This document shows positions 29,150 through 30,634 of a stretch of 32,000 nucleotides of DNA, piece by piece. The DNA lies in assembly GCF_021054785.1 (NCBI RefSeq), contig NZ_CP088239.1, positions 870,001 through 902,000 of the forward strand, written 5' to 3'. Below the pieces are notes generated by a model. The model did no database searches and was not told the DNA's origin. It saw only the letters and a list, made by a program, of their open reading frames with translations. The DNA is from Tannockella kyphosi (GTDB lineage Bacteria > Bacillota_I > Bacilli_A > Erysipelotrichales > Coprobacillaceae). The translations under genes were made by a program, and so were the position numbers. Position 1 is the stretch's first letter; the number at the start of each line of letters is the position of its first letter.

Positions 29150-29297
29150 CTAGTAATATAGTGTAAAATATCAAGATAGTGAAGAGTAAAGGAGACCAAC
29201 TATGATTTTTCAAGAGAAAAATGATAAAAAATTAAATTTCTTTTGAATCATAAAAAAGAGCGCACTAAAAAAGGTGGAATAAGCTATTTTTAAAAAA

Positions 29298-30461
29298 TTA
29301 TTCTAAGATGAATTTTTCATCAGGATTATTTAAGACAAAGTAAATATAGTTTACTAGTTTCTTTGAACAATGCCCTAAGGCATTGTAATGAGATTTTCCT
29401 TCACTGCGTTTCTTTAAATAGTAAGTGTTCATAGTTGTTGAATTTTTTGCCACATTATGAGCTGCCCATATCAGTGCATAACGTAGTGTAGCATTTCCTC
29501 TTTTAGACATACGTGTTCTCTTTGCATTAAAATTACCAGACTGTCTTATGATTGGATCTAATCCTGCATAAGCTAGTACTTTACAAGGACTATCAAATCG
29601 GTCTATACTAATGATAGCAGATAAGATGTAAGCACCTTGAATATAGCCCATACCAGGGATATTCAATATAGCACTGTCTATTTCTTTCATCATTTCAATG
29701 ATGTTTGCTTCTACATCTTCTATCTGCGATTCTAGAAGTTCGATTTGGAGTATGATATTTTTAATTCTAAAAGAGATTGCGTTTGAATGAAAGCCAACGC
29801 TATTTTTACTTAACGATTTAAGGTCTTTGATACGTTCGAGGTTGAAGCCTTTACTGTTTTTAGAAATTAACTTTGTCAAAGCCTCATTTCGAACTTCTTT
29901 TATTTCCTTAGCTGTAGCGTATCGTTTTAGTAAATTATGGGCTGCATTCGTCTTTAAATTGCCTTTAAAGAAGGATTTAAGCTCTGGGAACACACGATCT
30001 AGCTCTGCAGTTAGTTGTATGTATAGTTTTGTCTTTTGTTTAGTAAGACGAACTCTTTCATCACAATATACACGTAAGTCAGAAACAAGAAAGTCTTGAC
30101 CTTGTGAATTGTTGTACTGATAAGAAAGAAGTTGAGCAATGGACATAGCATCAATTTTATCCGTCTTAGCATTACGAACTGATAAACCACGAAACTGTTT
30201 TGAAATGATGGGATTAATAAGCTCACAGTGGTATCCAAGAGTAGAAAGATAAGAATGTAAGTTTTGATGGTAATGAGCAGTAGATTCAAAACCAATTAGA
30301 ATATCTTCTTTATCAATAGAAGATATTTTGGAAAGTAATAAATGAAACCCTTCTTTTGAATTATCAAAAGGAAAAGGTTGGTGAATCACCTCACCATGAG
30401 TTGTGATAACACAAGCATAATGCGTTGTTTTGGCAATATCAATGCCTACGTAATAAGTCAT
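29298..30461 (-). CDS. IS110 family transposase (DEDD recombinase with C-terminal Tnp_20 domain)
   Basis: YVGIDIAKTTHYACV is the first Asp motif, and FESTAHY and KTDKIDA are also present. The C-terminal block is IPGMGYIQGAYILSAI...YAGLDPIIRQSGNF...MSKRGNATLRYAL. The 387-aa ORF is intact, with SD AGGTGG upstream. Confidence 0.95.
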   Translation of the reverse strand: MTYYVGIDIAKTTHYACVITTHGEVIHQPFPFDNSKEGFHLLLSKISSIDKEDILIGFESTAHYHQNLHSYLSTLGYHCELINPIISKQFRGLSVRNAKTDKIDAMSIAQLLSYQYNNSQGQDFLVSDLRVYCDERVRLTKQKTKLYIQLTAELDRVFPELKSFFKGNLKTNAAHNLLKRYATAKEIKEVRNEALTKLISKNSKGFNLERIKDLKSLSKNSVGFHSNAISFRIKNIILQIELLESQIEDVEANIIEMMKEIDSAILNIPGMGYIQGAYILSAIISIDRFDSPCKVLAYAGLDPIIRQSGNFNAKRTRMSKRGNATLRYALIWAAHNVAKNSTTMNTYYLKKRSEGKSHYNALGHCSKKLVNYIYFVLNNPDEKFILE

Positions 30462-30478
30462 AAAAATAGACCACCTTT

Positions 30479-30634
30479 CTAGAACCTTGTCTATCCATGG
30501 CAGTCTATATCTATATCCTTGCGTGACATAAAAGCATTAACGCTTATCCAACTATAAATTAAAAATATAGAGCCATGGTATTAGTCTCCTTTAAATGGAC
30601 GAAAGCCATAGTAAAAATCAAAACATAGGTTCTA
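30479..30634 (-). ncRNA. candidate bridge RNA / seekRNA-like guide RNA in the 5' non-coding arm of the IS110 element
   Basis: The region has no ORF. An extended -10 lies immediately upstream on the same strand. It folds into a closed domain with an 8-bp closing helix and a 14-bp internal helix that leave two large internal loops. The loops carry segments matching DNA near the element ends. Details are in the findings; this call is an inference. Confidence 0.4.

Follow-up and report, generated by a model that had tools for sequence, protein, structure and literature searches.

The RNA-guided mechanism of the IS110 family of insertion sequences has been known since 2024. For IS621, the rules followed by the bridge RNA and the recombinase are taken here from three papers (PMC11208160, PMC11208158 and PMC13626964), the first of which also describes a short ATA/TAT repeat in this element. 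In the IS1111 elements, the RNA is found in a long right end, together with subterminal repeats of 7-17 bp (PMC11208160). Finally, IS900, from Mycobacterium avium subsp. paratuberculosis, targets translation initiation signals, according to the title of Doran et al. 1997, as cited in PMC8141618.

Here we describe an element of this family within a window of 32,000 nucleotides from Tannockella kyphosi (the whole stretch of DNA analysed, to which all coordinates refer unless otherwise indicated). With a probability of about 0.92, we consider it a bridge-RNA insertion sequence of the IS621 type, in which the Shine-Dalgarno sequence of the host is read by the right target guide.

Ends, core and gene content of the element

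The element is defined by the following features.

29193-30705, minus strand: IS110-group element, 1513 bp with both CT cores (four genomic copies, 31 distinct left ends).
29193-29194, minus strand: right CT core, where the right arm always ends.
30704-30705, minus strand: left CT core; the copies and the read junctions all diverge past 30705.
29195-29203, minus strand: left donor, that is, the right end of the element, ATAGTTGGT, which holds the ATA of the short subterminal repeat.
29298-30461, minus strand: IS110 recombinase of 387 aa (PF01548 and PF02371; D8, E59, D101, D104 and S308).

According to profile matches and motif positions, the recombinase consists of a DEDD domain and a Tnp domain with the catalytic serine, all motifs being intact. 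Four full copies exist in the genome (98.5-100% alike when aligned), and they agree as far as 29188 because all of them target the same Shine-Dalgarno motif. One of them, L147 (G000 C1:1007217-1008735), differs from the others at around 20 positions, some of which are shared with the C1:93k copy.

Related elements were gathered from genomes and metagenome contigs, providing 31 distinct left ends with recombinases that are 44-66% identical. Every one of these left ends starts with CT-TGTATGA, while the right ends terminate at CATAG(T/C)(T/A)GGT-CT and are followed, past this CT, mostly by CCTT, with CCCT, CCTA, CCAT and TTCT also being observed. A CT dinucleotide core is present at both ends, and the target duplication does not go beyond it. 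The left end is 244 nt long vs 105 nt for the right one, and the short repeat of the clade is a 4 bp CATA/TATG flanking the core. Together, the four genomic copies and 30 related elements place the element at 29193-30705, its core being CT, like that of IS621. Two other cores, one at 29191-29190 and a TT with a covarying donor, were dropped, as the right end of the relatives stops at GGT-CT.

Loose ends in sequencing runs X1-X4 (fish gut; window 29186-30712) all depart at or just past 30705, and they mark extra insertion sites of the element beyond the four of the assembly. Neither the circle joint nor the empty-site joint was found in four contig runs from one study, and contigs drop rare forms. 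The depth of the element was higher in the contig runs, but this is not interpretable. There was no match in Rfam or among plasmids, and a viral pattern scan gave 67 matches, just one of which lies beside such a recombinase. As for the surroundings, a sigma factor gene resembling that of sporulation sigma K (27125-27838, minus strand) lies tail to tail with parC, their stop codons overlapping.

A 13-nt match across the right junction

An earlier note on this DNA had reported that a 13-mer at 29187-29199 on the plus strand appears again, with one mismatch, at 30593-30581 on the minus strand. All the strings it quoted lie where it had placed them, the match at 12 of 13 positions is genuine and above chance, and at the single mismatch an RNA:DNA duplex would indeed have a U-G pair. 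Allowing for at most one mismatch, the 13-mer occurs exactly twice in the window, with 0.06 matches expected by chance and two never obtained in 100 shuffles. Between the two arms, 7.1% of dinucleotide shuffles produce a 13-nt inverted match with at most one mismatch, a proportion that falls to 0.75% when at least four G/C are present. Thus, the match is by itself only moderately significant, and it is the comparative evidence that carries the case.

30581-30593, minus strand: RNA copy of the 13-mer, with the right target guide (30593-30588), AG (30587-30586), AC (30585-30584) and UAA (30583-30581).
29187-29192, minus strand: right target CCTTTA on the recombinase strand, that is, the yqeH Shine-Dalgarno TAAAGG on the plus strand; it varies by site and follows the guide.

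In the RNA copy, UAAAGG is the right target guide, AG binds the core, AC is the handshake and UAA forms a tail. The DNA copy straddles the right junction, with 29187-29192 in the target, 29193-29194 in the core and 29195-29199 in the end of the element. The match is, therefore, one guide read across the right junction of the element, and guide, core and handshake explain 10 of its 13 bases. The proposal that the whole of 29187-29199 is target flank holds for its first six bases, but not for the following two, which are core, nor for the last five, which are the element's own.

Regarding the last three nucleotides, the tail pairs in this element only and is not conserved among its relatives. 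It could be argued that the tail is functional, as part of an extended handshake in which five bases instead of two form pairs with the donor's top strand, locking in the insertion. All five bases do pair in this element (one of them as U-G), at least three pairs are kept in 6 of 25 elements, and the third base is an invariant U opposite a G. However, 18 of the 25 keep, beyond the core, the first pair alone, all five are found only in the two variants of this element, and the invariant U that follows the handshake is a linker in IS621 (PMC11208158), making this explanation an unlikely one. As a clade-wide feature, a handshake of 5 to 8 nt was rejected.

Covariation between guides and targets

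Covariation was studied in 24 elements with 56 distinct sites, using swapped elements as the shuffle. Left and right flanks were scored separately because short contigs may join flanks from different copies. The Watson-Crick match between guide and flank was 0.84 at position +3 (0.46 when shuffled), 0.90 at +4 (0.65) and 0.58 at +5 (0.37), with nothing further out. The summed p of about 2e-4 treats kin as independent and, like the other p-values for covariation, overstates the signal because the elements are related. When the guide has A at +3, C is found in none of 40 sites; when it has G, C is found in 6 of 10 and T, a wobble pair, in the other 4. On the recombinase tree, the G guide turns up in six separate places and, hence, does not derive from one inherited event. 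In the genome studied here, L147 has G instead of A at 30590 in the guide and a CCCTT flank, both having changed together. For L033, the altered guide predicts TTCTAAA, and the flank reads TTCTAAA. Some individual sites (L031, L035 and L040) fit their guides poorly.

These results also bear on the alternative kept by the earlier note, in which both 13-mers are internal and form subterminal inverted repeats; the recombinase would then bind them as DNA, in the manner of IS1111. The copies in this genome alone, which look identical out to 29188, would agree with it, but 29187-29192 varies between sites and follows the guide; L106, L148 and L158 have differing first flank bases next to a constant inner 13-mer; the inner copy is separated by 112 nt from the left end and falls within a loop of the RNA; and the true short repeat of the clade is the CATA/TATG around the core. 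We regard this alternative as highly improbable and interpret the match as guide and target.

On the left side, the correspondence is weak.

30610-30619, minus strand: putative left target guide, a weak, U-rich stretch with CU at its end; positions -1, -3, -4 and -5 covary modestly in the canonical register.

Of the several positions and registers tried for left target guide and left target, only the canonical register gave a signal, and a weak one.

Folding of the RNA and donor guides

By analogy with IS621, an RNA would be produced from the left end. The RNA runs consist of unstranded contigs, from which neither strand nor start of the RNA can be read, and the following elements were defined by folding and comparison.

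30595-30609, minus strand: inner hairpin within the target-binding loop; its 4 pairs persist in 27-28 of 28 sequences, and two-sided changes are numerous.
30495-30578, minus strand: donor-binding loop domain, with a stem (30578-30565 with 30510-30495) and an inner hairpin (30545-30532) that show compensatory changes.
30546-30555, minus strand: left donor guide AUAGUUGG-AU, identical to left donor -9 to -2.
30516-30529, minus strand: right donor guide AU-GUCAC-G-CAAG (30529-30518), followed by GA (30517-30516) as the donor-loop handshake; CAAG is invariant and the layout is that of IS621.
30627-30634, minus strand: 5' strand of the closing helix in an RNA that would start at the internal promoter; it pairs with 30487-30480.
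30480-30487, minus strand: 3' strand of the closing helix, which the earlier note had called a donor guide, beside the recombinase Shine-Dalgarno (30480-30471).

The consensus fold includes the inner hairpin of each loop and the donor-loop stem, with many compensatory changes, and 14 of its 22 pairs show two-sided changes. Although a functional RNA antisense to the recombinase, with 30581-30592 as left donor guide, could be conceived, in all 31 elements the fold of the sense strand is the more stable one, with a mean advantage of 8.9 kcal/mol, the G-U pairs of the consensus helices suit the sense strand, and the right-hand guides are absent from the other one. An antisense RNA is, hence, very improbable as well, and the guides are read here on the recombinase strand.

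The donor guides match both sides of the circle junction, through an offset identity with one covarying change on the left and through the invariant CAAG on the right. The left donor guide has an 8-nt identity to the left donor that lies one base off the IS621 register, so that a bulge is needed at donor -1. In one clade, an AGCUGG variant of this guide goes with an AGCTGG donor; in three elements with an AGTAGG donor, the guide shows no corresponding change. In L025, which lacks the T at donor -1, the left donor guide falls in the IS621 register, and the first handshake base is C, fitting the G that is now at donor -1.

The role of the handshakes would be the one described for IS621. The first base of the target-loop handshake pairs with donor -1 in 22 of 25 elements, the second being Watson-Crick in only 5 of 25, and, in the donor loop, it is the first handshake base that covaries with target -1 (p=0.008).

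The boundaries preferred by the earlier note, that is, an element at 29204-30635 with a CTAT core, with all 13 bases as flank and 30487-30480 as donor guide, have next to no chance of being correct: the tetranucleotide does occur at 29200-29203 and 30632-30635 and the 13-mer is partly flank, but both CTAT lie inside the element and mark no boundary, 29195-29203 and 30636-30705 are common to the four copies and, as they belong to the element, the CTAT model falls, the relatives begin with CT-TGTATGA and end in GGT-CT, which, with the four copies, makes the core CT, and the 8-nt complementarity of 30487-30480 with 30634-30627, although genuine, is the closing helix of the RNA fold. The empty site predicted from those boundaries is wrong for the same reason, as the two segments are shared by all four copies. 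Aligning the genomic copies and the relatives, as had been suggested, did define the ends, but elsewhere, and the flanks follow the guide.

The target is a host Shine-Dalgarno sequence

30706-30710, plus strand: left target, the spacer from the broken Shine-Dalgarno to the yqeH start.
30711-31808, plus strand: yqeH GTPase gene, intact, cut off from its own promoter and Shine-Dalgarno.

On the host strand, the sites are laid out as AAGG-AG, a spacer and a start codon. ATG is found 4-9 nt from the core in 52 of 58 sites, and in 44 of 49 a frame of at least 40 codons, or one open to the contig end, starts there. For comparison, such a start follows 11% of random AG and 41% of all AAGGAG of this genome (n=1440, 41% with a plausible start after them). 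The insertion at ribosome-binding sites is oriented, the element being directed against the host gene. Therefore, the right target guide reads the host Shine-Dalgarno on the opposite strand, which at this locus is that of yqeH. In this genome, three copies are located at gene starts, and the retargeted L147 interrupts a frame of 486 codons rather than a ribosome-binding site, a single case.

When the element is removed in silico, the promoter, AAAGGAG, five bases and the yqeH start are restored, as in element-free relatives. In the related genomes searched for the empty site, the promoter, the Shine-Dalgarno and yqeH were seen without the element, at a distance too great for a base-level match, and the search yielded no empty allele of the species itself. 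In the literature searched, whose coverage is incomplete, we found no bridge-RNA paper on Shine-Dalgarno targeting.

Two additional observations concern the upstream side. The right end of the element adds a 7-nt spacer and an ATG after the host AAGG-AG, opening a 14-codon antisense frame (29195-29247, plus strand); this ATG belongs to the short subterminal repeat, of which it may be a mere by-product. Further upstream, an 11-pair inverted repeat (29123-29150) overlaps the probable yqeH promoter and reads as a terminator on the recombinase strand.

Candidate promoters and 5' ends of the RNA

A circle form and a circle promoter would be expected by analogy with IS621, and candidate sequences for them are present.

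29208-29213, minus strand: -35 of the circle-junction promoter, TTGAAA; of 31 distinct right ends, 30 have a TTGAC(A/T)-like hexamer at a distance of 17-18 nt from TATGAT.
30696-30701, minus strand: -10 of the circle-junction promoter, TATGAT, in the ends of the relatives.
30640-30648, minus strand: putative internal extended -10, TGTTATAAT (TGnTAnnnT in 18 of 31 left ends), a consensus match only.
30681-30689, minus strand: second strand complementary to the 3' tail of the RNA and probable 5' end of the circle-promoter RNA (duplex with its own tail -11.6 vs -7.8 kcal/mol when swapped).

In the sequence, joining the ends across one CT gives a promoter spacer of 17 nt here and of 17-18 nt in 30 of 31 right ends. 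The RNA tail at 30490-30480 (minus strand), by the ribosome-binding site of the recombinase, is complemented by two 5' strands, 30689-30681 and 30634-30627, the former of which covaries with the tail in the 31 elements. Two 5' strands for one tail would fit two promoters giving two RNA 5' ends. Single-sequence folds revealed no switch of the recombinase ribosome-binding site between the two 5' ends.

An outward Shine-Dalgarno and a hairpin at the left end

30655-30663, plus strand: outward Shine-Dalgarno AGAAAGGAG, whose 9 nt complement the tail of the host 16S.
30665-30702, plus strand: conserved hairpin from the outward Shine-Dalgarno to the element end, present in 31 of 31.

The outward Shine-Dalgarno matches the 16S tail over 5-9 nt in all 31 elements, and over at least 7 in 29 of them. 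The hairpin begins 1-4 nt past this sequence and stops 2-7 nt short of the element end, being more stable on the outward (host mRNA) strand in 25 of 31 elements and on the other strand in 5. These features suggest that the left end may repair the broken ribosome-binding site, with Shine-Dalgarno and hairpin keeping host genes such as yqeH translated, and that the same stretch may provide an alternative 5' end of the guide RNA in the circle form, a proposal to which we give slightly less than even odds. The hairpin would fold on the host mRNA, and the new Shine-Dalgarno would thus be carried next to the host start codon; as an alternative to looping-out, ribosomes might be loaded near the host start for re-initiation. 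Counting against such a repair, looping-out leaves a spacing that exceeds the original one by some 3-9 nt. Additionally, the intended negative control failed, since relatives with 32-36% identity also have an outward Shine-Dalgarno and themselves lie mostly at ribosome-binding sites.

Those distant IS110 elements (L250-L260), two copies of which exist in this genome, have a left-end hairpin and a TCCTTTC motif, and their core is placed at other Shine-Dalgarno positions. Two other roles were discarded for the left end. A conserved outward peptide was rejected because frames 0, 1 and 2 relative to the core are about equally frequent and 12 of 30 already terminate within the element, and a guide decoy because the outward motif is unchanged where the guide changes (L028, L033 and L106).

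Proposed mechanism and implications

In the model that we propose, the left end would be transcribed on the recombinase strand into an RNA that has two loops, one for the target and one for the donor. UAAAGG, as the right target guide, and the AG would pair with the CT-CCTTTA strand of the ribosome-binding site, while the U-rich left guide would loosely fit the A-rich spacer and the donor loop would hold the circle junction. Exchange at CT would then insert the element against the direction of the host gene. After strand exchange, the handshake AC, directly 3' of the core-binding AG, would pair with the last two bases of the element, and, as a consequence, the right junction (donor-core-target) would be complementary to guide-core-handshake over a run of 10 nt.

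The element provides a natural example of guide reprogramming, in which one RNA base and one target base change together within one genome, and this guide change recurs across a clade from Erysipelotrichales-type bacteria. The guide is short and degenerate, and hundreds of intergenic sites are therefore possible. Moreover, the bridge-RNA rule explains the long-known landing of IS900-like elements at ribosome-binding sites. If the outward Shine-Dalgarno truly restores translation, it would show how an element survives before conserved genes. Finally, a compact recombinase with a natural right guide of 6 nt is on offer for engineering.

Comparison with known systems

Like IS621, the element has a CT core, a TGTAT right donor, a short ATA/TAT repeat and a putative circle-junction promoter, and its left-end RNA would present the target loop and then the donor loop, with right guides pairing to the top strand, handshake bases located 3' of the AG that binds the core and a bulged right donor guide ending in G-CAAG. 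Unlike IS621, it targets a Shine-Dalgarno, its left target guide is degenerate, its left donor guide is offset by one base, its right donor guide has a longer bulge, both of its loops lie within the closing helix, and it has the putative internal extended -10 and around 70 extra bp at the left end, with the outward Shine-Dalgarno and hairpin.

With the IS1111 group and the seekRNA elements it shares the recombinase family and RNA guidance, but, unlike IS1111, it has a long left end and a repeat of only 4 bp; the IS1111 traits (subterminal inverted repeats of 7-17 bp and a right-end RNA) are absent from the element and its relatives. Compared by description, it resembles CazIS110-1 (bioRxiv 10.1101/2025.10.25.684509) in being a Firmicute IS110 with a two-loop RNA and several genomic copies.

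The element is like IS900, as described in the citing paper, in belonging to the IS110 family, in its translation-initiation targets and in that the host signals read the strand opposite to the recombinase. In IS900, an antisense frame, hed, extends from one end to the other, whereas the host site is followed here by the 14-codon frame only; no hed-like antisense frame spans the element, the longest plus-strand frame inside it being 90 aa. IS900 also differs from the present element in that the far end of the latter carries an outward Shine-Dalgarno. The element thus joins an IS621-type bridge RNA, a mechanism that is itself already known, with IS900-like targeting.
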